Assembly (NCBI GenBank): GCA_036558305.1
Contig: DATBFX010000341.1
Location: forward strand, 6,101 to 70,100
Length of the DNA: 64,000 nt
Source of the DNA: Thermomicrobiales bacterium
GTDB lineage: Bacteria; Chloroflexota; Chloroflexia; Thermomicrobiales; UBA6265
Reading direction: 5' to 3'
Below, one piece after another: positions 47,549 to 59,747 of the stretch. Numbering within the stretch: the first letter of the stretch is position 1; each line of letters starts with the position of its first letter. The position numbers and the translations under genes were made by a program. The notes beneath the pieces were generated by a model. The model had not been told where the DNA came from. It was given only the letters and a program-made list of their open reading frames with translations, and did not search any database.

Positions 47549-47690
47549 GCGGACAGACGGACAGACGGACAGACGGACGGACGGAGGACTTATGAACGCC
47601 AACGCAACGACCGACTCAGGTCTAGCACCGGGCAAGGCAGACGCGACTCGTTCTCCGCTGTCCGACTGTCCGTCTGTCCGCCTATCCGTC
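47549..47690 (+). repeat. hairpin D: (GGACAGAC)x4 - loop - (GTCTGTCC-type)x4
   Basis: Left arm gcggacagacggacagacggacagacggacggacgga lies directly after the TAG at 47546-47548. Right arm 47655-47690 is ccgctgtccgactgtccgtctgtccgcctatccgtc. 17 bp pair perfectly, plus 7 more after one mismatch. The annotated ATG at 47592 lies in the loop. Confidence 0.9.
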
Positions 47691-49181
47691 TTGCGTGAGG
47701 GCTTCGACTATCCCTTGAGCCGGCTCGATCCGTTCGGGGCGCACATCGACCCGCCGAGTGTCGCGCTCTACGAGACGATCGTCGTCAAGGGACCGGACGG
47801 AACGGCGCAGCCGGGGCTGGCCGAATCGTGGCAAATCTCGCGAGATGGGCTCGAATGGCGCTTCCGCCTCCGACCGGACGCACCGTTCCACTCGGGCGCA
47901 CCCTGCGACGCCGACGCGGTGGTCGCCGCGCTGGATCCCCTCCGGTACGACCACTTCAGTCCGCGACGCCAACTCTGGTACTGGGATCCGGTGGACACGG
48001 TCCGCGCCGAAGAGACCGACACCGTCGTCTTTACGCTCCATCACCCGTACGTGCGCCTGCCGTCTCTCCTCTGGGGAACCCACACGGCCATCTACAACCA
48101 AACACTTCGCTCGCAGGAACCCGAACGCTTCGGTTACGAACTCGCCGACGGGACCGGGCCGTTCCGATTCGTGAGCTGGTCGAAGGAACGCGTCGTCCTC
48201 GAAAGGTGGGCGGACTACCCCGGTTCGGCGGCTCCGTTCCTCGCGACGGGCGGTCCCGCCAGGCTGGACCGGATCGAATGGACGATGCTGCTCGATCCCG
48301 CGGAGCGCGTCGCGGCGCTGGACCGGGGCGACGTGGACTGCATCCACGGTCCACGTTACGCCGACGTCCCCCGCTTGGAGGCCGACTCGCGCTTCCACGT
48401 CGTCCGGTTCAGCCAGGCCGCGAACGCCTACCTGGCCCTCAACTGGCAGCGCACCGACCTCGGTTTCGATGACGTTCGCGTCCGCCGCGCCATCTCCGCC
48501 GCGATCGACCGCCCCCGTCTCGTCGAGGACGCGCTCCTCGGGTACGGCGTCCCGACCTTCGGTCCGCTCTCACCCGGCGGCGAGTTCTACGATCCCGCCG
48601 TCGAATCCGGTCGCGGCCACGATCCCGCCGCCGCCGGTCGCCTCCTCGACGAAGCCGGTTGGCAACTCGGTGCGGACGGTATCCGATCGAAGGGGGAGGA
48701 ACGCCTCTCCTTCGAGTGCGTGATCCAGGACGACGCGATCCATCAGCAGATCGCGATCGGTCTGCGCGACCAGTTGCGCTCCGTCGGTATCGTCCTCGAT
48801 CTCAGACCGATCCTGACCTTCAGCGGCTTCTACCAGACGGTCGCGAGCGGACCGGCCAGCTTCATCAACAAATGGCTCTGGCAAGACCCGGTCGACGCCG
48901 CGATCGGCTTCACCGCCTCCTGGGGCCGCCCGTTCCCGAACTGGCAGCACGCCGCGATCCCGCGTCTCGACGATGCCTACCGCGCCTGGCTTCAGGCCGA
49001 GACACTGGAAAGCCTCCAGGCCGCAGCGACGCAGGCCCAACTCATCGTTGCCGACGAACTGCCCTATATCCCGCTGCTGGTCCCGCAGGACGTCTGGGTT
49101 CATTCGACCCGCGTCACCGGCTGGGAGCCGGCCCAGGCGATCCTCTACCCGTTCTATCATCGGACCGAGGTGCGCGGGTGA
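47592..49181 (+). CDS. family-5 solute-binding-protein homologue without signal peptide
   Basis: The SBP_bac_5 body starts at LREGFDYPLSRLDPFG...ALYETIVVKGPDG. The 33 residues before it (from the ATG at 47592) are hydrophilic and partly encoded by hairpin D. The TTG at 47691 is an alternative start. Confidence 0.75.
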   Translation: MNANATTDSGLAPGKADATRSPLSDCPSVRLSVLREGFDYPLSRLDPFGAHIDPPSVALYETIVVKGPDGTAQPGLAESWQISRDGLEWRFRLRPDAPFHSGAPCDADAVVAALDPLRYDHFSPRRQLWYWDPVDTVRAEETDTVVFTLHHPYVRLPSLLWGTHTAIYNQTLRSQEPERFGYELADGTGPFRFVSWSKERVVLERWADYPGSAAPFLATGGPARLDRIEWTMLLDPAERVAALDRGDVDCIHGPRYADVPRLEADSRFHVVRFSQAANAYLALNWQRTDLGFDDVRVRRAISAAIDRPRLVEDALLGYGVPTFGPLSPGGEFYDPAVESGRGHDPAAAGRLLDEAGWQLGADGIRSKGEERLSFECVIQDDAIHQQIAIGLRDQLRSVGIVLDLRPILTFSGFYQTVASGPASFINKWLWQDPVDAAIGFTASWGRPFPNWQHAAIPRLDDAYRAWLQAETLESLQAAATQAQLIVADELPYIPLLVPQDVWVHSTRVTGWEPAQAILYPFYHRTEVRG

Positions 49182-49297: not shown

Positions 49298-50092
49298 ATG
49301 GCAGGACCGCGCTTGAGCGGCAGGACGGCGGTCATCACGGGCGGCGGGAGCGGATTCGGCCGGGCAACCGCGCGCCGCTTCGCCGAGGAAGGAGCCTCCA
49401 AAATCGTCCTCGCGGACATCCGCAAGGAGAAAGCGGACGAGGTCAAAGCCGAGGTGGAAGCACTGGGCGCGCAAGCGCTGGCGGCACGATGCGACGTCGG
49501 CGAGGTCGCCGCCTGCGAGAGACTGGTCGAAGACACCCTCACCTTCGTCGACGGCAAACTCGACATCCTCGTCAGCAACGCCGCCCCCTTCCACGGCCCC
49601 GAGTCGTTCCTCGAATTCCGCGACCAGACCTGGTTCGAGGACGTCGCAATCAACCTGACCGCTTCCTATGTCCTGGGTCAGCGTTGCGCCCGCGCGATGG
49701 CCAAGACCGGTGGCGGCGCGATCCTCTACACCACCTCGATCAATTCCCAGGGCGCCGGCGCCGGTTTCGCCTCCTACTGCGCGACCAAGGCCGGCATCGT
49801 CGGACTCCTCCAGGTGATGGCCGTCGAACTCGCCAAATACAACATCCGCGTCAACGCCGTCGGCCCCGGCCCGGCCGACACCCCTCGCTCCGTTCAACTC
49901 GTCGGCGAGGAGACGATGGAGCAATTCCGCAAGAAGTTCCCCGTCGTCCCCCTCAACCGGCTCGCCAGCGCCGATGACGTCGCCAACGCCTTCGTCTACC
50001 TCGCCTCCGACGAAGCCTCGTACGTCACCGGCCAAAACCTTATGGTCTGCGGCGGAGTCACAGCGTACGTCTACAACGTACCGGAGGAGTGA
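49298..50092 (+). CDS. short-chain dehydrogenase/reductase (SDR)
   Basis: AVITGGGSGFGRA (TGxxxGxG), NAAP, and the YCATKAG catalytic Tyr-Lys. ATG after AAAGGAG. Confidence 0.9.
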   Translation: MAGPRLSGRTAVITGGGSGFGRATARRFAEEGASKIVLADIRKEKADEVKAEVEALGAQALAARCDVGEVAACERLVEDTLTFVDGKLDILVSNAAPFHGPESFLEFRDQTWFEDVAINLTASYVLGQRCARAMAKTGGGAILYTTSINSQGAGAGFASYCATKAGIVGLLQVMAVELAKYNIRVNAVGPGPADTPRSVQLVGEETMEQFRKKFPVVPLNRLASADDVANAFVYLASDEASYVTGQNLMVCGGVTAYVYNVPEE

Positions 50093-50154
50093 GACGGACA
50101 GACGGACAGTAGAACGAGCCATTTCCGTCTGTCCGTCTGCCCGTCTGCCCGTCC
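50092..50154 (+). repeat. hairpin E: GGACAGAC-type units
   Basis: agacggacagacgg (50092-50105, starting at the last base of the SDR stop) is the exact reverse complement of ccgtctgtccgtct (50125-50138). The right arm continues gcccgtctgcccgtcc to 50154. The next ATG is at 50175, with GGAG outside the stem. Confidence 0.85.
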
Positions 50155-50174: not shown

Positions 50175-50999
50175 ATGCCACACGCGAACGTCAACGGCGT
50201 CAAGATCTACTACGAGATCAGCGGTAGCGGGCCGACGGTAATCCAGATCGGCGGTGCGGTCAATGGGCACGAAGGGTACGCCTTGATCACGCCGCACATG
50301 AAGGAGCACTTCACGGTGATCGACTTCGATCACCGCGGCTACGGGTTCAGCGACCGGCCATCTCAGAAGTACACGATGGATACCTGGGTCGACGACATGG
50401 CCGGATTGCTCGACGTCCTGGGCATCCAGAAATGCCATGTCCATGGCGGCTCGATGGGCGGTTTCATCGCCTGCCTTTTTGGCGCGAAGTACCCGGAGCG
50501 GGTTGACCGGCTCGTCTTCAACGGTGCCGTCGCCAAGTGCGACTGGATGGCGCGCACCAACTTCCATCTCTGGAAACGGACCGCCCAAACATTCGGTCTC
50601 GGGTCTGAAGAACTCGCCCTGATGCTCCTGACACACGCCTTCTCCCGCAAATATCTCGACGAGATGGTCGCCGGCGGCAGCCTCCACTCTCTGAGCTGGA
50701 TGCAGGATTCGATCACGCGCAACGCGTCGCTCGAGATCTTCTCAGACGCCTGCGACGCCATGGCCGAAACCGACGTCACCGGTCTCCTCGCCGGTATCGT
50801 CGCGTCTACCCTCGTCCTCCACGGCGACGAGGACATCCTGACCCCCCTCGACTGCGGTCCCGACGGCGCGGGCGCTCGCGTGATCGCCGAAGGCATCCCC
50901 GACGCCGAACTCTATCTCCTCAAAGGGTGTGGTCATGGCGTCCTCTTCGAACGCGCCGATGAGGCGGTCGGGAAGGTGATTGACTTCCTCAAGACCTGA
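50175..50999 (+). CDS. alpha/beta hydrolase
   Basis: VIDFDHRGYGFSD, nucleophile elbow VHGGSMGG, LVLHGDEDILTP and GCGHGV. Confidence 0.85.
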   Translation: MPHANVNGVKIYYEISGSGPTVIQIGGAVNGHEGYALITPHMKEHFTVIDFDHRGYGFSDRPSQKYTMDTWVDDMAGLLDVLGIQKCHVHGGSMGGFIACLFGAKYPERVDRLVFNGAVAKCDWMARTNFHLWKRTAQTFGLGSEELALMLLTHAFSRKYLDEMVAGGSLHSLSWMQDSITRNASLEIFSDACDAMAETDVTGLLAGIVASTLVLHGDEDILTPLDCGPDGAGARVIAEGIPDAELYLLKGCGHGVLFERADEAVGKVIDFLKT

Positions 51000-51333: not shown

Positions 51334-53229
51334 ATGCGCGATCTCTCGCGAACCAAGAAGCTCGGGGTCTTCGGTCTGCTGGTCGTTGGCGCGACGGCGG
51401 TCCTTCGGCGAACGGCGGCGAGGGCCTACGTCGACAAGGCGCTCCAGCCGACCGGGTTGCTCATCCGGCTGTCGCATACCCTGGATCGAAAGCTCGGCTG
51501 GTATCGACTGCCGCGCCCGCTCGGACTTGTGGTTTTGGTCGGACTGCGCAAGCTCCTCCGTCGCCGCAACCTCTACGACACGACGAAGATTCCGTCGCTG
51601 CCCCAGCCGCCACCGGTCGCTCCCGACGCGCGCTATCGGACAGCGCGCACGGCAGATGGCACCTTCAACGACGTCGAGCAGCCGAGGATGGGCAGCGCCG
51701 GCACCCGGTTCGGCCGGAACGTCCCGCTCGAGGACACCTACCCCGATCCGATGCCGGACATCCTCCAGCCCAATCCGCGCACCGTCAGTCTCGAACTCCT
51801 CACCCGCGACGCCTTCCAGCCGGCGACGACGATCAATCTCCTGGCCGCCGCCTGGATCCAATTCATGGTCCGCGACTGGTTCAGCCACGGCAAGAGTCCG
51901 AAAGAGAACCCCTGGGAGCTGCCGCTGGACGCCGGCGACCCCTGGCCGGACAAACCGATGCGAATCCTCCGCACCATGCCCGATCCCACCCGCCCCGAGG
52001 GCAGCGACGGCGCGCCGCCGACGCACATCAACACCGAGACGCCCTGGTGGGACGGTTCGCAAATCTACGGCAGCGATGCCGCTTTCCAGGCCAAGGTCCG
52101 CACGGGGCGCGACGGCAAACTCGCCGTCGGCGCCGAGAATCCGCTCCTGGCCGATCCGACGTCGCCGGAGAACCCCGCCAACGTCCCCGGTTTCTGGCTC
52201 GGGTTGGCGCTGCTGCACAACCTGTTCACGCTCGAGCACAACGCGATCTGCGACCAGTTCCGAACGCGGTATCCGCATTGGTCCGACGACGAGGTGTTCG
52301 ACCATGCCCGGCTCGTCAACGCCGCCCTCCTGGCGAAGATCCACACGGTCGAATGGACGCCCGCCCTGATCAGCCACCCCACGACAAAGCTGGCGATGCG
52401 GGCAAACTGGTGGGGTATCGCCGGCGAGCACCTGCACAATCTCTTCGGGCGGATTTCCGGCAGCGAGGTGATCAGCGGTATTCCGGGCTCGAAAACAGAC
52501 CACTACGGGATTCCCTACTCACTCACCGAAGAGTTTGTCGCCGTCTACCGGATGCATCCGCTCATCCCCGACGATTTCTCCTTCCGGGCAGTGGCGGACA
52601 ACCGCTTGCTGAACGAGCGAACCTTTCCCGAGTTAACGGGCATGCACGCGCTGGAGGTGCTGGCGCAGACGCCGATGGCGGACCTGCTCTACTCGTTTGG
52701 CACGTCCAATCCGGGCGCGATCCAACTGCACAACTATCCGCGCGGTTTGCAGCACTTCATCCGTCCCGACGGCATCCCGCAGGATCTGGCGGCGACGGAC
52801 ATCCTGCGCACCCGCGAACTTGGCGTGCCGCGGTACAACCGGTTCCGCGAGTTGCTTCACCTCCGGCCGGCGTCGACCTTCGAGGAGCTGACCGACAACC
52901 CGGTCTGGGCGGAGGAGCTCAGGCGGGTCTACGGCGGCGACGTCGACCGGGTCGATCTTGTGATCGGGCTCTTCGCCGAGCCCAAACCGGCGGGGTTCGG
53001 CTTCAGCGATACGGCCTTCCGGATCTTCATCTTGATGGCGTCCCGCCGGCTCAACAGCGACCGCTTCTTCACCAACGACTACACCCCCGAGGTCTACACC
53101 CAGACCGGTTTGGACTGGATCGACCAGAACGGGATGGCCTCGGTCCTCCTGCGGCACTACCCCGCTCTCCAGCCGGCGCTGCGGGGAGTCGAGAACCCCT
53201 TTGCGCCGTGGACGACCGTGGGCGGTTAG
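51334..53229 (+). CDS. animal-type heme peroxidase superfamily protein, alpha-dioxygenase (PIOX)/cyclooxygenase-like
   Basis: ATG at 51334 (MRDLSRTKKLGVFGLLVVGA). LDRKLGWYRLPRPLGLVVLVGLRKLLRRRNLYDT and YRTARTADGTFNDVEQPRMGSAGTRFGRN resemble plant/bacterial alpha-dioxygenase N-termini. WIQFMVRDW, LEHNAICD, and EEFVAVYRMHPLIPD (compare the COX LYHWHPL Tyr/His motif). Confidence 0.8.
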   Translation: MRDLSRTKKLGVFGLLVVGATAVLRRTAARAYVDKALQPTGLLIRLSHTLDRKLGWYRLPRPLGLVVLVGLRKLLRRRNLYDTTKIPSLPQPPPVAPDARYRTARTADGTFNDVEQPRMGSAGTRFGRNVPLEDTYPDPMPDILQPNPRTVSLELLTRDAFQPATTINLLAAAWIQFMVRDWFSHGKSPKENPWELPLDAGDPWPDKPMRILRTMPDPTRPEGSDGAPPTHINTETPWWDGSQIYGSDAAFQAKVRTGRDGKLAVGAENPLLADPTSPENPANVPGFWLGLALLHNLFTLEHNAICDQFRTRYPHWSDDEVFDHARLVNAALLAKIHTVEWTPALISHPTTKLAMRANWWGIAGEHLHNLFGRISGSEVISGIPGSKTDHYGIPYSLTEEFVAVYRMHPLIPDDFSFRAVADNRLLNERTFPELTGMHALEVLAQTPMADLLYSFGTSNPGAIQLHNYPRGLQHFIRPDGIPQDLAATDILRTRELGVPRYNRFRELLHLRPASTFEELTDNPVWAEELRRVYGGDVDRVDLVIGLFAEPKPAGFGFSDTAFRIFILMASRRLNSDRFFTNDYTPEVYTQTGLDWIDQNGMASVLLRHYPALQPALRGVENPFAPWTTVGG

Positions 53230-53298
53230 CGCGATCCGCCGCCACGAGGTGAGCGTACGTTCCCGGTTTCCGGCCGGGCAAGAGGCGGAGGAGGAGCG

Positions 53299-53709
53299 AT
53301 GACCATCAATCCCGAGCGGCAGCGAGACTACGCCCGCAAAGCCCTCGCCGGCATCCGGCTGGTCAACGGCGGACTCGGTCTCCTCGCGCCGGCGGTGCTG
53401 GCCCGCCAGGTAGCGGCCGATGCCAAGACCAACCCGGCCGCGCTCTACGCGTTTCGGATGTTCGGCGTCCGGACCATCCTCATCGCCGTCGACCTGCTGA
53501 TGCCCGACGGTCCCGTCCGGGCGCACGCCGTCCGTGCCGCCCCGGTGATCCACGCCACCGACGCGTTCTCGGTCGCCCTTGCCGGTATTCGTGGCGAGCT
53601 GCCGCCGCGAGTCGCCGTCAAATTGGGGTTGATCTCGGGCGTCAATACCGCGTTGGCGATCATCGCGCAACCCGCTCGGTCGACACCGTCCGGCGAACTC
53701 CGCGCCTAA
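53299..53709 (+). CDS. small hydrophobic hypothetical protein
   Basis: 136 aa with 3-4 predicted TM segments (GIRLVNGGLGLLAPAVLA, MFGVRTILIAVDLL, LGLISGVNTALAIIA). Same strand as, and between, the two heme-enzyme genes. Confidence 0.5.
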   Translation: MTINPERQRDYARKALAGIRLVNGGLGLLAPAVLARQVAADAKTNPAALYAFRMFGVRTILIAVDLLMPDGPVRAHAVRAAPVIHATDAFSVALAGIRGELPPRVAVKLGLISGVNTALAIIAQPARSTPSGELRA

Positions 53710-53782
53710 TACTGGGAACAGCAGGGCGCGACCGGATCGGCGGCCAGGAATCGGTGCGGAATCGCTGGAAGGGGCGGCGGTC

Positions 53783-54970
53783 TTGAGGCTGGCGAAGAAG
53801 GTCAACGATGCGCTGGTTGCCGTCGTACTTGCCGAACGGCGGATCGATCCCTATTTTCGGGATCGCTTCGACGGTCTGCTGCAGAGACCGCTCGTGGCCT
53901 GTGTCCAGCATCTGATCAATCTCCGGCGCCAGGATGAGCGGCTGGGCATCGCCGAGGAGAGGCTTCTTGCCAATGAGGCCGAGGTGACGTCGGGCATCAT
54001 CGAGCAGATGTCCTTGTTCACGCGGCGGACGTACCCCACCGGTATCGCGGAACGGGCCGGTAACACCAAGACCTACGGTATCGTCCGGGGGGAGTTCACC
54101 GTGCTCCCCGATCTGCCGGAGTCACTGCGGTGCGGTGTTTTTCGCGAGCCCGGCCGGACCTATCCGGCGTGGGTGCGGTTCGCGGGGCCGGGACCGTTGA
54201 CTCCGCCGGACATCGAGGACAACGGGGTCCTCAGCATCGGGATCAAATTGATGGGCGTCGAAGGCGAGAAGCTGAGCGACGACGAGAAGATGACCCAGGA
54301 CTTTACGGGGATCAGCGCGCCGACCTTTACCACCCCGAACATCGTCGAGAACCTGAAATTGCAGAAGCGCCTGGTGGACGGAACCCCGATTCTCTACTTC
54401 CTGCAACCGTTCGATTCGCACATCCTGGACGGTCTGATGCAGGGACTCTATGCGCGGACGCACACCAACCCCTTGAACGTTCGGTATTACAGCTGCGTCG
54501 CCTACCTGTTCGGTCCGGGTCGCGCGATTCACTACTCGGTCCGGCCCCGCACGCCCGAGAAGACAAGGATGCCCAGGAATCCGTCGGCGAACTACCTGCG
54601 GGAGGCGATGGTCGAGACCCTGGGTCGGCGCGAGGTGCTCTTCGACTTCGTGATCCAGTTCCAGACCGATCCCCACAGGATGCCGATCGAGAACGCCTCC
54701 GTCGAGTGGCCGGAGCGGCTCTCCCCGTTCATCCCGGTGGCAACGCTGCGACTTCCGCGGCAGCGGTTCGACTCCGCGGCCCAACTCGCGTTTGCCCGCA
54801 ACCTCTCGTTCAATCCCTGGCACTGCATCGCCGACCACCGCCCGCTCGGCAACCAGAACCGGGCGCGGAAGACAATCTACCTGGAACTGTCCAAGCTTCG
54901 ACAGTCGATCGGCGGTGAGGCCCGGATCGAACCCACCGGCAACGAAACGTTCGATGGTGGGCCGGTCTGA
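53783..54970 (+). CDS. catalase-related (mini-catalase / allene-oxide-synthase-like) heme protein
   Basis: ERAGNTKTYGIVRGEFTV...FREPGRTYPAWVRFAGPG...GIKLMGVEGEKL parallels the catalase core beta-barrel start. C-terminal NRARKTIYLELSKLR fits the catalase proximal R..Y.....R heme-ligand pattern. The TTG start is uncertain. Confidence 0.6.
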   Translation: MRLAKKVNDALVAVVLAERRIDPYFRDRFDGLLQRPLVACVQHLINLRRQDERLGIAEERLLANEAEVTSGIIEQMSLFTRRTYPTGIAERAGNTKTYGIVRGEFTVLPDLPESLRCGVFREPGRTYPAWVRFAGPGPLTPPDIEDNGVLSIGIKLMGVEGEKLSDDEKMTQDFTGISAPTFTTPNIVENLKLQKRLVDGTPILYFLQPFDSHILDGLMQGLYARTHTNPLNVRYYSCVAYLFGPGRAIHYSVRPRTPEKTRMPRNPSANYLREAMVETLGRREVLFDFVIQFQTDPHRMPIENASVEWPERLSPFIPVATLRLPRQRFDSAAQLAFARNLSFNPWHCIADHRPLGNQNRARKTIYLELSKLRQSIGGEARIEPTGNETFDGGPV

Positions 54971-55010
54971 TCGCCGATCACACCCAGCGGAGCACGCGCG
55001 GAGGGCAGAG

Positions 55011-55442
55011 ATGGCATGGAGCAGCGCGGCCTGGTCGCGGATGTTCGTGGCGGCGGCCGTTTTCAATTTTGCGATCGGTGTCCCGATCCTCGTGGCGCGC
55101 AGGTGGAGCTACGATCTGGCCTACAGCACGCCGCTGCCGGCCGACGACACCATGACCTTGAAGTTCTGGGGCGACTTTGGCTTCGCCGTCGTCCTGATCG
55201 GTGTCGGGTACTACCTCGTCTCTCGCGACGTCGGCGCGAACCGCGGGCTCGTCTGGTTGGGGATCGGCGCCAAGCTGTTCGACGTGGTCGTGCTGACCTA
55301 CCGGTGGGCGACGGACCTGGCGAATCCGATCGTCCTGCTCCCCGCGCTCATCGACGGCATCTTCGTCCTCCTCTTCGCCGCCTTCCTGTACCAGACCCGG
55401 CTTTCGGGGCTCCAGTCCTCAACCGCCGGCAATCAACCCTGA
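55011..55442 (+). CDS. small integral membrane protein, unknown function
   Basis: ATG at 55011 after GGAGGG. MAWSSAAWSRMFVAAAVFNFAIGVPILV with four hydrophobic segments. The track ORF from 54792 is an over-extension. Confidence 0.55.
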   Translation: MAWSSAAWSRMFVAAAVFNFAIGVPILVARRWSYDLAYSTPLPADDTMTLKFWGDFGFAVVLIGVGYYLVSRDVGANRGLVWLGIGAKLFDVVVLTYRWATDLANPIVLLPALIDGIFVLLFAAFLYQTRLSGLQSSTAGNQP

Positions 55443-55464: not shown

Positions 55465-56880
55465 TCAAGAGTCGCCAAGATTCGCGAGATACCGAATGGC
55501 CCGCAGACCGGGGAGGAAGAAGTAGGCGCCGCCGCGCACGGTGACGAACTGGGGGAGACCGCTGAACCGTTGTCGCACCGGTTGCGCCTGGACGGTAAAC
55601 GTGCAACCGAATGGGGAACGACCGGCGACGAGAGGGTCAGCGTCGTCGTAGAGACCGGCGAAGTTGGGATTGTTGAGCCAGGTGTGACTGACGAACTCGA
55701 ATTGCCGGCCGATGTTCGCGTTCAGGCAGATGAAGTGGAGACCGCGGTCGGTTTCGAACTCCTCGACGATGCCGAGGGAGTCGGCGGTCGCCGGGTCGTT
55801 CATCGGGAGCGGCGGTCCGTATTCCCGGCCCCGGCGGAGCAGCCGGTGTCGCTTGTTGATGGCGAGCGATTTGTCGGTGCCCGGAGACGGGTCCAGTGAG
55901 TCGCGGGGATTGGTGCGGCGGATGTGGGCGCCGATCGGGCAGCCGAACCCGTGGGGATCGATCTTGTGGTAGCCGAAATCGCTGGCGTCCCCGAGTTCCG
56001 GATTGTCGCGATCGGGCGCCATCGCCAGCGGTGCCCCGCTCGGCCAGCGCCCCACGAGCTTGGCGGCGAGTTTCAGGCGGGCCGCCGGATCACCGCTGCC
56101 GTCCGGGTTCTTCGTCGCATCGTCGACAAAACGCCAGAAGGCGGCGACGTGCTGGCGAAGTTGGCGAAAGACGAGATAGGTGCCGTTCCGGCCCAGGTCA
56201 AACCCGTCTCCGCCACTGCGACCGGTCGTGTCGCGGACAACCGGTCCCGCCGTGTATTGACCGTACTCGTTCCGGTAGCCGAGCACGAACTCGCCGGCCC
56301 TGACGGTGTTGCCGGGTGGCCCGGTGCGACCCAACCCTTCGACGATCGGTTGGGAGATGCCGTCGCGGAACCCGAAGTGCTCGCGATCGTCGAGATCGCT
56401 CGTGTCGAGTCTCGCCACTTCGACCAGTTGCGCGGCGGCGAGTTGGCGCGAGAGTTCGGCACGGACCGTAGCCAGGACCGCACGATCTGCCGCGAAGACG
56501 AGCAGCACGAGATCGATGGGTCGAGTTTGCGGTCCACCCCAAGCCCAGCGTTCGGGAGCGCTGTCGTCGACGTCGCCGAGGATGCGTCGCGTGTGGTCCG
56601 TCGTCATGCCGGCGATGAACTCGTGGGCGAACATTGTGAGACTCGCCGCCGGCACACCGAGCTTGCCGAGACCGGACGGGGTCAAGGCGATGTTGAGCGC
56701 CCGATCGCTCGGCTTGACGCGGCCGGTCGTGATCGTCTCGGCGACCGCACGGAGCCAGACCCGCGCGGCGTCCGGCTGCGCGATTTCGAGGTGCAGGTAG
56801 CAGGCGGCATTGAGGTCGCCGTAACCGCGCGCCACCAGACCCTGAATGTCCTCGAGTTCGAGTTGCTCCATCGCCGGCAT
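55465..56880 (-). CDS. DyP-type heme peroxidase
   Basis: LELEDIQGLV, EHFGFRDGISQPIVEG (GxxDG), GAHIRRTNPRD (proximal His region), and LHFICLNANIGRQFEFV. Start is the ATG at 56880 or 56871; the upstream part of the track ORF overlaps the preceding gene. Confidence 0.88.
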   Translation of the reverse strand: MPAMEQLELEDIQGLVARGYGDLNAACYLHLEIAQPDAARVWLRAVAETITTGRVKPSDRALNIALTPSGLGKLGVPAASLTMFAHEFIAGMTTDHTRRILGDVDDSAPERWAWGGPQTRPIDLVLLVFAADRAVLATVRAELSRQLAAAQLVEVARLDTSDLDDREHFGFRDGISQPIVEGLGRTGPPGNTVRAGEFVLGYRNEYGQYTAGPVVRDTTGRSGGDGFDLGRNGTYLVFRQLRQHVAAFWRFVDDATKNPDGSGDPAARLKLAAKLVGRWPSGAPLAMAPDRDNPELGDASDFGYHKIDPHGFGCPIGAHIRRTNPRDSLDPSPGTDKSLAINKRHRLLRRGREYGPPLPMNDPATADSLGIVEEFETDRGLHFICLNANIGRQFEFVSHTWLNNPNFAGLYDDADPLVAGRSPFGCTFTVQAQPVRQRFSGLPQFVTVRGGAYFFLPGLRAIRYLANLGDS

Positions 56881-56915
56881 GCCAGGTCCTACGATGCTCA
56901 GTCCACTCGGGCTCG

Positions 56916-58193
56916 TCACAGGAGACGGAGCCATTGTTCGACGGCGGTTGCGTCCATCGCTCCGTACAAACCTCGCCGGATGTCGGCATTGCGCGCGATG
57001 TTGACGGCCGTCAGTCGCGGATAGGCGGAGTACCAAACCCGCGTCGGAATTTGATGCACGCGCAGATAATCCTTGAATGCCGTCTCGTCCTTCGCCCCGT
57101 GGAGGATCAGCCAATCGGTCTTGGGATAGCCGACGCCGTTGCTGAAGACCGCGTTCAGACCCCAGGCGACCTTGTCGATGAACTCGTCCATGTAGCTTTC
57201 GAGGCTGCCGTCGTAGTTGCTCGCGAAAATCAGGCGGCGTTGATCGTCGATCAGGACCCAGCGCGCGAAGTGGATCGTCCTTACCCCGCTGAGCTGGCCC
57301 TTCGTGTAGATGTTCCGGGTGCCGTAGTTGACGAGCCAGAGGACCCCGCGGGCAGACAGCAGGCGGAAGCGCCCGGATTTCAGAAAGCCGACGCCGGCGA
57401 AGGGGTTCTGCACCGCGCGGTCCTCAAGGGAGGCGAGGGACGCGACGCGTGCGGGATCGGGTCTGATGTGGCGCGCCGGGTCACGTCGCTCGCGCTTCCG
57501 CAACAACAGCAGCCAGAAGGGCAAACCCAGGATGATGACCGGCGAAAGAAGCAGCAGGAGCAGCGGGACGGCGACCAGACGAAGTCGCCCGCGGATGAGG
57601 TCGCGCAGGCCGGATGCTGGCGGAGGCGTTCGCGCCCAGGCAAGGGTCGGTTCCTGGTTCACGAACTCCTGAATCGCCCCCCGGATTTCGGCGGGACGGC
57701 GGCTTGACCAGTTTTGGCCAGGACGATCCAAGAAATCCTGGATCGCCTCGCGCAGCGCGGCGTCCTGATGGACCTGCTGGACGGTCCGGCCGGGTCTGTT
57801 GGCGTACGTTGTCTGCGCTTTGACGGTCCTCGCCCGTAAAAAGGCGATCCGGCTGTCATCGGTGAGCGCCGAAGCGGCCGGATAGCCCTCGCAGTGAGAG
57901 AAGATGTCGTCCAGACCGGTGCGGGCAGACGCCACCAGATCGCGCAGATAGCGATCCAGCGACCCATCGATGTCGCTCAGGAAGACGAGGTAAGGCGGGG
58001 TCGATTCGCCGCCGGCGCCGGCGGACTCCTCCAGGATCAGGATTCGTGCGAAGTGCAGTTGGGAAAGCTGCGTGAACGGAATTACGGCGCCATTGGCGAC
58101 GCCGTTGCCCATCGTCGTCAGGAGTTCGTCGAGTTGTCCGATCGCCGCCGACCGGATGCGGGCGATGATCGTCACGGCGAGCTGCTGCTCCAC
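56916..58193 (-). CDS. membrane protein with two DyP-like half-domain repeats (DyP-associated)
   Basis: Two internal repeats: LHFARILILEE...YLVFLSDIDGSLDRYLRDLVASARTGLDDIFSHCEGYP and IHFARWVLIDDQRRLIFASNYDGSLESYMDEFIDKVAWGLNAVFSNGVGYP. A TM helix (LVAVPLLLLLLSPVIILGLPFWLLLL) separates them. The GTG at 58193 after GGGAGA is my best guess for the start. Confidence 0.6.
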   Translation of the reverse strand: MEQQLAVTIIARIRSAAIGQLDELLTTMGNGVANGAVIPFTQLSQLHFARILILEESAGAGGESTPPYLVFLSDIDGSLDRYLRDLVASARTGLDDIFSHCEGYPAASALTDDSRIAFLRARTVKAQTTYANRPGRTVQQVHQDAALREAIQDFLDRPGQNWSSRRPAEIRGAIQEFVNQEPTLAWARTPPPASGLRDLIRGRLRLVAVPLLLLLLSPVIILGLPFWLLLLRKRERRDPARHIRPDPARVASLASLEDRAVQNPFAGVGFLKSGRFRLLSARGVLWLVNYGTRNIYTKGQLSGVRTIHFARWVLIDDQRRLIFASNYDGSLESYMDEFIDKVAWGLNAVFSNGVGYPKTDWLILHGAKDETAFKDYLRVHQIPTRVWYSAYPRLTAVNIARNADIRRGLYGAMDATAVEQWLRLL

Positions 58194-58249
58194 GCTGGCT
58201 CTCCCGACGATGACTCCACCGGGCCATTTGCGCCCGCGCGACCGCGGTG

Positions 58250-58687
58250 TCAGGTGGGAAAGACGAGAAAGAAGTTCACGAGCTTCTTCTTGCCCCAATA
58301 GACGATGCCGAGAAAGCGACCCGGCGACACCTCGCGAATCTCGTCCCTGATCCAGTGCGCGACGAGCGAGGTGCGGGAGTAATCCAGGACGATGCACTCC
58401 TTGCCATCGAACCAACTCTTCTCTTTGTAGACATTGGCCCGAATCGCACGGACGCGGAGTGGCGTTATCTTGTTACGCAGACCTTCGCCGCGGGCGTCGA
58501 ATACCTTGCCCTGCCAGATCAGGAGATGGATCAGCGTCGCGGTCAGGTGCGACAGCCAAGAACCGGGCTGGACGATCGCCGTGCCGTCGGCATCGCCCGT
58601 CGGGACGCGTTCGACACCGCCGTCTCGGAACAGCTCGTCGAGTTGCTGCTGCGACATCGCCGTCAGTTGGGTCGCATCCAACGACAT
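58250..58687 (-). CDS. hypothetical protein, first gene of the DyP operon
   Basis: ATG at 58687 (MSLDATQLTAMSQQQLDELF). Globular composition (WFDGKECIVLDYSRTSLVAHWIRDEIREVSPGRFLGIVYW). No family recall. Confidence 0.55.
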   Translation of the reverse strand: MSLDATQLTAMSQQQLDELFRDGGVERVPTGDADGTAIVQPGSWLSHLTATLIHLLIWQGKVFDARGEGLRNKITPLRVRAIRANVYKEKSWFDGKECIVLDYSRTSLVAHWIRDEIREVSPGRFLGIVYWGKKKLVNFFLVFPT

Positions 58688-59613: not shown

Positions 59614-59747
59614 GGAACAGACGGACAGACGGACAGACGGACCAAGTCGACGACGAAGTCGCGATCACGCTTGTTACGACTGACGACCGACGGCTGACGG
59701 CTCTCCCTGTTCCGTCTGCCCGTCTGCCCGTCTGTCCGTCTGCTTCC
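59614..59747 (-). repeat. hairpin F: GGACAGAC-type units, spanning the 3' end of the Fur-family gene
   Basis: Plus-strand ggaacagacggacagacggacagacggacc (59614-59643) pairs with gttccgtctgcccgtctgcccgtctgtccgtctgcttcc (59709-59747), 15 bp perfect plus 7 more. The Fur-family stop (59674-59676) lies in the loop, and arm 59709-59747 is translated as ...KQTDRRADGQTEQ. Confidence 0.88.

Follow-up and report, generated by a model that had tools for sequence, protein, structure and literature searches.

The window analysed here is a 64,000-nucleotide stretch of contig DATBFX010000341.1 (positions 6,101 to 70,100, forward strand) from a Thermomicrobiales bacterium, and the system in question is a conserved set of genes within it, here called the "module", that encodes three haem proteins and several smaller or hydrophobic partners. 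The source assembly comprises 8.1 Mb in 634 contigs, and the nearest named relatives of the organism's proteins belong to the Thermomicrobiales and Ktedonobacteria. A first-pass annotation, made from the letters of the sequence, had singled out four plus-strand genes at 51334-55442 as a candidate oxylipin module. These four genes are half of the conserved module; the other half is a convergent minus-strand operon (55465-58687), whose end lies 22 bases past the last plus-strand gene.

The plus strand carries, in order, the genes for an alpha-dioxygenase (alpha-DOX)-like haem protein of 631 amino acids that belongs to a clade with a distal Arg (51334..53229), a small hydrophobic protein of 136 amino acids (53299..53709), an atypical catalase-fold haem protein of 395 amino acids with a TTG start (53783..54970), and a small integral membrane protein of 143 amino acids (55011..55442). 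The gaps between them are 69, 73 and 40 nucleotides. A GAAAGG site lies about 10 nucleotides 5' of the ATG at 51334, and the ATG at 55011 follows GGAGGG. The minus-strand operon begins with the gene for a soluble protein of 145 amino acids (58250..58687), a member of what we call the 146-aa family. It continues, across gaps of 56 and 35 nucleotides, with a twin ferredoxin-like, membrane-anchored protein of 425 amino acids (56916..58193; GTG start behind GGGAGA) and a haem peroxidase of the dye-decolorizing (DyP) type, class V (C/D type), of 471 amino acids (55465..56880; ATG behind AGGA).

Haem proteins and their partners in the window

Sequence comparison shows the 631-aa protein to be homologous to alpha-dioxygenases over its full length; it groups with alpha-DOX and not with ordinary peroxidases. 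It matches PF03098 with an E-value of 9e-109. A search of the PDB aligned its residues 47-626 with residues 35-617 of rice alpha-DOX (4KVJ) at 39% identity (E = 9e-123) and matched the Arabidopsis alpha-dioxygenase structure (4HHR) over the full length (E = 4e-117); the next-best solved proteins were lactoperoxidase (8e-21) and cyclooxygenase-2 (COX-2; 3e-13). The corresponding bit scores are 414 for rice alpha-DOX, 77 for lactoperoxidase and 52 for COX-2, so that the profile comparison with alpha-DOX and COX suggested in the first-pass annotation ends in an alpha-DOX grouping and not among the non-dioxygenase peroxidases. The hallmarks listed there (KLGWYRLP...LRRRNLYDT, RTADGTFND, WIQFMVRDW and EEFVAVYRMHPLIPD) are all present. 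The Tyr/His pair that had been equated with the catalytic Tyr and proximal His of COX is Tyr405/His408 in the alignment to rice alpha-DOX, where it corresponds to the catalytic Tyr379 and proximal His382 of the VYRMH motif, and few of the 120 closest homologues lack it. Rice His311 is matched by His337 (AKIHTVEW) and rice Arg558/Arg559 by Arg571/Arg572 (MASRRL), both conserved in homologues; in the rice enzyme these residues hold the carboxylate of the fatty acid. The distal-helix Gln is kept as Gln176, and a short N-terminal hydrophobic stretch recurs among orthologues.

The distal His is the point of departure. Rice His157, in the motif WIQFMxHDW, is replaced by Arg180, and WxQFMxRDW is found in 113 of the 115 close homologues that have a recognisable motif, which argues that Arg180 is no accident of a single sequence. 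The alpha-DOX partners in modules from Bacteroidota and Moorena retain the distal His, so the pairing described below is not tied to the Arg substitution. A paper on cyanobacterial alpha-DOX calls the distal His only "partially conserved" across the family (PMC8720084), and the literature that we searched yielded no characterised member with a distal Arg.

As a single query, the 395-aa protein had no match in Pfam, NCBIfam or the PDB. It belongs to a large family (4203 clusters at 50% identity), and a profile built from 74 family sequences (alignment A1) matched the PDB entries 3E4W (5e-17), true catalases (about 1e-8) and coral allene oxide synthase (cAOS) 1U5U (2e-8). The AlphaFold model has a predicted local distance difference test score of 94.4, and its best Foldseek matches are 1U5U (8e-16) and 3E4Y (TM-score 0.77, normalised on the target), followed by catalases. 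The proximal motif Arg362-x3-Tyr366-x6-Arg373 is kept and matches the catalase pattern. On the distal side, profile alignments place the R-x-x-H motif of the family at the catalase distal His and at His67 of cAOS, a position where the window protein reads Arg91-Ala-Gly-Asn94. The distal Asn of catalases corresponds to Ser178, the register of cAOS (Asn137) gives Ile177, and cAOS Thr66-His67 correspond to Gly93-Asn94. Profile and model thus indicate that the protein has a catalase fold with a predicted Tyr-ligated haem and is without both distal catalytic residues. Of the features that define a monofunctional catalase, the 395-aa protein has neither the distal His and Asn nor a match to PF00199, even at an E-value of 10. 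Much of this had been anticipated: the first-pass annotation described a catalase-related protein with a proximal Arg/Tyr/Arg motif and no obvious distal His, and the segments RAGNTKTYGIVRGEF and NRARKTIYLELSKLR are present. Its label "AOS-like" holds for the fold, 1U5U being the top Foldseek match, and fails for the catalytic residues (Gly93, Asn94 and Ile177/Ser178).

The loss of the distal His is a property of the subfamily. All module-linked orthologues have Asn at this position, within a conserved RAGNTK(T)YG or RGGNTKTHG; the wider catalase-fold family mostly has His. A distal Asn might, speculatively, favour homolytic O-O cleavage, as has been proposed for the Asn of CYP74 enzymes. Relative to MAP-2744c, the mycobacterial protein of entries 3E4W and 3E4Y, the window protein has about 90 extra N-terminal residues, modelled as two long helices, and in some relatives (P0030, P0052) a multi-pass membrane domain is fused to the C-terminus. 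Two further observations concern this family. Among the orthologues in loci L001-L031, L052 and L053, the residue four past the distal Asn is usually Tyr (RAGNTKTYG) where the neighbour is alpha-DOX, and usually His (RGGNTKTHG) where the neighbours are a GMC oxidoreductase and a dihaem cytochrome, with L014 as the exception. Distant family members (P0152, P0162, P0193, P0233 and P0264) are fusion proteins of 900-1060 amino acids, in which the catalase-fold domain, at either end, is joined to RoxA-like dihaem cytochrome c.

The assignment of the third haem protein is conventional. It scores 108 bits against TIGR01413, over the cut-off, and its family profile (A3) matches 8RE3 (2.5e-81), 7ANV, 4AU9, 4G2C and 5C2I. 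The canonical DyP residues are in register with 8RE3, namely the Asp of FGFRDG, the proximal His of GAHIRRTNPRD and the Arg of RLLRRG; it has the two ferredoxin-like domains, GXXDG Asp, distal Arg and proximal His of a class V DyP, and no signal peptide.

The 425-aa protein had been read as two DyP half-domains. We could not sustain this: hhalign gave a probability of 0.5% against the DyP profile, and the fold is ferredoxin-like with no detectable DyP homology. The AlphaFold model (score 83.5) consists of two ferredoxin-like alpha+beta domains around a strongly hydrophobic helical hairpin, and Foldseek returned, as best matches, the ABM/SchA-like protein WhiE-ORFI (9LMN; 8.5e-7, a weak match with a TM-score of only 0.42-0.48) and the decarboxylase Abx(+)O. 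A profile of the family had no sequence match in the PDB. The family alignment (A2) has 48 invariant columns, His46 and His307 included, and the motif (L/I)HFAR, with its invariant His, occurs once per domain.

The 145-aa protein belongs to a family of at least 7994 homologues, all named hypothetical, with 62% mean column identity across phyla (alignment A4) and no Pfam or PDB match, profile searches included. An assignment to the GXWXG/DUF4334 type was considered and dropped as unsupported, with one of 17 members matching PF14231 at an E-value of 0.12. The two proteins that had been called small membrane proteins fit that description: the 136-aa protein is hydrophobic, and the 143-aa protein has three hydrophobic segments by hydropathy, which also detects hydrophobic segments in the 425-aa protein. 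The 136-aa protein has no Pfam match. It belongs to a family that is represented by two paralogues in the collinear operons, and in L001, L002, L052 and L053 it is 52-57% identical to the product of the gene just 5' of alpha-DOX and 29-36% identical to a second paralogue encoded between the alpha-DOX and catalase-fold genes. Relatives of the 143-aa protein, 53-74% identical, lie within the module in L052, L004, L013, L006, L007 and L008; its sole family match is a weak one to DoxX_3 (E = 0.054).

Conservation of the module across genomes

To describe the gene neighbourhood we surveyed 31 loci that carry an orthologue of the catalase-fold protein at least 47% identical to it. They span at least seven phyla, with representatives of the Chloroflexota, Cyanobacteria, Bacteroidota, Acidobacteriota, Alpha-, Beta- and Gammaproteobacteria and Actinomycetota. 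DyP neighbours the catalase-fold gene in 30 of the 31 loci, the 425-aa protein in 27, the 146-aa protein in 20 and the alpha-DOX-like gene in nine; several of the cases with a missing neighbour fall at contig ends. We refer to the catalase-fold protein, DyP, the 425-aa protein and the 146-aa protein as the "core". In L002/L003 and L053-L055 the genes form a single-strand array with short gaps, in the order 146-aa, 425-aa, DyP, 13x-aa, alpha-DOX, 13x-aa and catalase-fold, and L064 has the same seven-gene set as the arrays of L002 and L053-L055. The closest relative of the window, L052, has the same split, convergent layout as the window itself. In P0125 (880 aa) and at L028:293-3130, DyP and the His-less catalase-fold protein are fused in frame, as N- and C-terminal parts respectively. 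Module homologues number in the thousands, mostly from metagenome assemblies, and all of the non-haem components are annotated only as hypothetical. No description of this module was found in the literature that we searched.

A sample of 401 genomes from the phylum of the window yielded the alpha-DOX-like gene in 20 genomes and the catalase-fold gene in six. In all six of the latter (that of the window and five others), the two genes are on the same contig. Linkage of the two recurs in Chloroflexota-type, Bacteroidota and cyanobacterial loci and involves two alpha-DOX clades, one with a distal Arg and one with a distal His. The paired module proposed in the first-pass annotation is therefore borne out as to co-conservation, by the six of six phylum genomes and the collinear arrays, but not as to extent, since the module is twice as large and alpha-DOX is present in only nine of the 31 loci. 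Five core-bearing genomes were searched in full, one of them the complete genome of a Sphingomonas, and none contained an alpha-DOX homologue anywhere at an E-value of 1e-10; the same query was positive in five of five positive-control genomes. Alpha-DOX is an optional, swappable front end of the core. In two loci (L001:3377-7539 and L057:10636-13460, from Reticulibacter and one genome of the same phylum), a 513-aa protein of unknown function and a caspase-like (Peptidase_C14) protein are encoded between the alpha-DOX and catalase-fold genes.

The loci without alpha-DOX have their own recurrent neighbours. In 14-15 of them, a GMC oxidoreductase of about 616 amino acids and a lipoprotein of about 830 amino acids with two CxxCH haem-c motifs lie beside the core (L013-L017, L019-L023, L025 and L029-L031; for example L022:5602-9953). 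Dioxygenases and GMC oxidoreductases are both peroxide-forming enzyme families, and since both recurrent accessories come from such families, a common logic is suggested in which a peroxide generator is combined with fixed peroxide users.

The neighbours of the alpha-DOX-like gene point to lipids. A patatin-like phospholipase adjoins alpha-DOX in L052, L056, L058 and L059. In the window that position is taken by an alpha/beta-fold hydrolase of 274 amino acids (50175..50999, plus strand; PF00561, E = 8e-25), directly upstream of the alpha-DOX-like gene across a gap of 334 nucleotides, and in L014 and L015 by a different alpha/beta hydrolase. No close orthologue of the window's hydrolase was present in the other loci; it is a possible lipolytic partner whose membership in the module is uncertain. 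Farther upstream lies a short-chain dehydrogenase/reductase (SDR; 49298-50092). Pfam identified both it and the hydrolase, in keeping with the earlier reading of the flanking genes. As a module member the SDR was rejected: matches elsewhere amount to partial ones of 28-36% in L002/L003 and one of 26% lying 5 kb from the module in L012, and an octamer-repeat hairpin separates the SDR from the hydrolase.

Three loci show the distal-Arg alpha-DOX-like gene in other company. At L061:2336-12256 a cytochrome P450 follows it directly, and on its 5' side lie a GMC oxidoreductase, two RoxA-like cytochromes c and an Old-Yellow-Enzyme-type reductase, a layout that resembles the fungal dioxygenase-P450 fusions. 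At L062:9001-12412, on a Pyrinomonadaceae contig, it is immediately 5' of a 502-aa lipoxygenase, with GDSL lipases near. In L063 it stands alone. The catalase-fold gene never adjoins a lipoxygenase in the loci examined. Neighbouring patatin, P450 and lipoxygenase genes, taken together with the carboxylate-binding residues that the alpha-DOX-like enzyme has kept, favour free fatty acids as its substrate.

The hairpin between the SDR and the hydrolase (50092-50153) is one of three intergenic hairpins, the others being at 47550-47691 and 59617-59743, that are inverted arrays of 8-nucleotide units of the CGGACAGA and CCGTCTGC types. They flank genes and extend in part into coding ends. Promoter, terminator and Rfam scans across 48.5-59.8 kb were uninformative.

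Precedents and competing explanations

The first-pass annotation took the coral fusions of allene oxide synthase and lipoxygenase (AOS-LOX) as precedent. A nearer one, by analogy, is the pair formed in Nostoc punctiforme by a linoleate 10S-dioxygenase (10S-DOX) and a separately encoded catalase-related 10S-hydroperoxide lyase (Brash et al. 2014, as cited in PMC13049297 and PMC9579011). As the citing papers describe it, that pair likewise consists of a haem enzyme of the peroxidase-cyclooxygenase superfamily that dioxygenates fatty acids and a small haem protein, catalase-related and separately encoded, which there uses the hydroperoxide product. Set against the same accounts, the window differs in that its dioxygenase is a member of the alpha-DOX clade, the distal His is absent from both haem proteins, DyP and two proteins of unknown function are constant partners, and the front end is exchangeable. 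The window dioxygenase is not a COX-like 10S-DOX, because it scores 414 bits to alpha-DOX and about 50 to COX.

Each component can also be set beside solved or characterised relatives. With the plant and cyanobacterial alpha-dioxygenases (rice 4KVJ, Arabidopsis 4HHR, CalDOX and LepDOX; PMC8720084) the 631-aa protein shares homology over the full length, the catalytic Tyr, the proximal His, the distal-helix Gln and the carboxylate-binding His and Arg-Arg; it differs in having Arg180 for the distal His, an N-terminal hydrophobic stretch and a setting in a multi-haem module. The catalase-fold protein resembles the coral AOS-LOX domains (1U5U, 3DY5) in its small catalase fold, Tyr-ligated haem motif and best Foldseek match. 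In cAOS, T66, H67 and N137 are catalytically important, His67 acting in hydroperoxide rearrangement (PMC5617202), and in the window protein, at 16-18% identity, Thr66, His67 and Asn137 are replaced by Gly93, Asn94 and Ile177 or Ser178, and the partner is no lipoxygenase. Its closest solved relative, by profile (5e-17) and by target-normalised TM-score (0.77), is MAP-2744c (3E4W, 3E4Y), a 33-kDa catalase-related protein of Mycobacterium avium subsp. paratuberculosis; here the identity is 17%, and the window protein differs by its two extra N-terminal helices and by belonging to a subfamily in which Asn replaces the distal His. The DyP shares both domains, the distal Asp and Arg and the proximal His with solved class V enzymes (8RE3, 7ANV, Auricularia DyP 4AU9, Amycolatopsis DyP2 4G2C and Anabaena AnaPX 5C2I). 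It is an orthologue of none of them (best score 277 bits), and it differs in its constant gene partners, the catalase-fold, 425-aa and 146-aa proteins, and in being joined in some cases to the catalase-fold protein as one chain.

The reading that we put forward, and to which we would give slightly less than an even chance, is that of a membrane-associated module that generates fatty-acid peroxides and then uses them. A lipase, the upstream alpha/beta hydrolase here and patatin in relatives, would free fatty acids from membrane lipid. The alpha-DOX-like enzyme would bind the carboxylate through His337 and Arg571/Arg572, and its Tyr405 radical would lead to the addition of O2 at C-2, giving a 2-hydroperoxy fatty acid. 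This labile product would be consumed by the catalase-fold protein, with its Tyr-ligated haem and without an acid-base His, or by DyP, or by both, and would end either as the 2-hydroxy acid, by reduction, or as a shorter aldehyde, by cleavage. The hydrophobic partners may keep the system at the membrane. Alpha-DOX would be a swappable source of peroxide, and in other phyla the same core would work with the GMC flavin oxidoreductase and the dihaem cytochrome c.

Several points weigh against this reading. The distal His serves peroxide activation in characterised alpha-DOX and COX. Both the alpha-DOX-like and the catalase-fold enzyme are without a distal His, and because it is missing in each, the activity of both haem enzymes is only predicted. 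We infer the C-2 regiochemistry of the 631-aa protein from conserved residues alone. Since the core occurs without alpha-DOX in many genomes, its primary substrate need not be a fatty-acid peroxide, and 14 of the 20 phylum-sample genomes with an alpha-DOX-like gene are without the catalase-fold gene. In the window, the two halves of the module are convergent and do not form one operon.

A core that is kept without its dioxygenase could instead be a defence. It would then detoxify, at the membrane, organic or lipid hydroperoxides that arise from oxidative stress. The alpha-DOX-like enzyme would be an addition to it, trimming fatty acids that are damaged or have been released, and would not provide the substrate. 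This would account for the five of five genomes, the complete Sphingomonas genome among them, that have the core and no alpha-DOX homologue, and it agrees with the membrane association of the module and with the membership of two of the four core proteins in peroxide-handling haem families. MAP-2744c (3E4W/3E4Y), the small catalase-related protein to which the catalase-fold protein is nearest among solved structures, reportedly has peroxidase activity with organic peroxides. We nonetheless think defence unlikely: the catalase-fold protein is without both distal catalytic residues, the recurrent accessories (dioxygenase and GMC oxidoreductase) are enzymes that make peroxides and do not remove them, and the loci examined have in common neither an oxidative-stress regulator nor a partner that would supply reductant. 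The module is also patchily distributed, occurring in six of the 401 phylum-sample genomes, unlike housekeeping defence genes. Patchiness of this kind would suit a chance adjacency, in which the alpha-DOX-like and catalase-fold genes serve unrelated processes and were made neighbours by an accident of gene order or by horizontal transfer, as would the occurrence of the alpha-DOX-like gene alone or with other partners and of the core without alpha-DOX. Chance is very improbable, given that Chloroflexota-type, Bacteroidota and cyanobacterial loci all show the linkage, with two alpha-DOX clades, that the layout is operon-like with short gaps, and that the two genes share a contig in six of the six phylum genomes with the catalase-fold gene.

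The module might also oxidise something other than a lipid, for instance a pigment, a polymer or an aromatic compound. The oxidation itself would then fall to DyP, and the GMC oxidase or the alpha-DOX-like protein would do no more than supply peroxide. Steps of cofactor-independent oxygenation or decarboxylation would be the task of the catalase-fold and ABM-like proteins. The DyP class includes the fungal dye-decolorizing peroxidases and Amycolatopsis DyP2; fungal GMC oxidases commonly supply H2O2 to such peroxidases, and a GMC gene recurs beside the core. The best fold matches of the 425-aa protein come from polyketide pathways, and in some relatives of the catalase-fold protein a RoxA-like cytochrome c forms part of the same chain. 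On a metagenomic contig (L064:15923-19857), a multicopper oxidase and a tyrosinase stand directly 3' of a complete module. We judge this alternative quite unlikely in view of the missing secretion signals on the DyP, catalase-fold and 145-aa proteins, the lack of any conserved polyketide, aromatic-catabolic or transport genes around the module, the fatty-acid carboxylate-binding residues kept in the alpha-DOX-like protein, and the lipases, P450 and lipoxygenase that recur beside its gene.

The fatty-acid peroxide reading also admits a bolder form, possible but somewhat doubtful, in which the module is a "peroxide relay" that is widespread in bacteria. A swappable generator, either the alpha-dioxygenase or the GMC oxidase with the dihaem cytochrome, would feed a fixed four-protein core of DyP, the His-less catalase-fold protein, the twin ferredoxin-like protein and the 146-aa protein, which would perform new haem chemistry on membrane lipids. 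The distal Asn and distal Arg would then be adaptations and not defects, and the module would yield oxylipins, 2-hydroxy lipids or aldehydes of a new bacterial class.

Significance for bacterial haem chemistry

Little is known of bacterial oxylipin pathways built on haem dioxygenases; to our knowledge, the Nostoc 10S-DOX and its catalase-related lyase are the sole characterised bacterial pair of a haem dioxygenase and a catalase-related protein. The module described here is abundant and widespread, with carriers in the Chloroflexota, Acidobacteriota, Bacteroidota, Cyanobacteria, Proteobacteria, Actinomycetota and others. Some of the carriers are in culture, namely Reticulibacter mediterranei, Maribellus mangrovi, Sphingomonas sp. 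DBB INV C78, Edaphobacter sp. HDX4 and Terriglobus sp. ADX1. Alpha-dioxygenases are already in use for making fatty aldehydes (PMC8720084), and for that reason the new alpha-DOX variants may serve as biocatalysts. The module combines three haem folds, two of them without the distal His that is deemed essential in their families, and so bears on how such folds operate when that residue is lacking.

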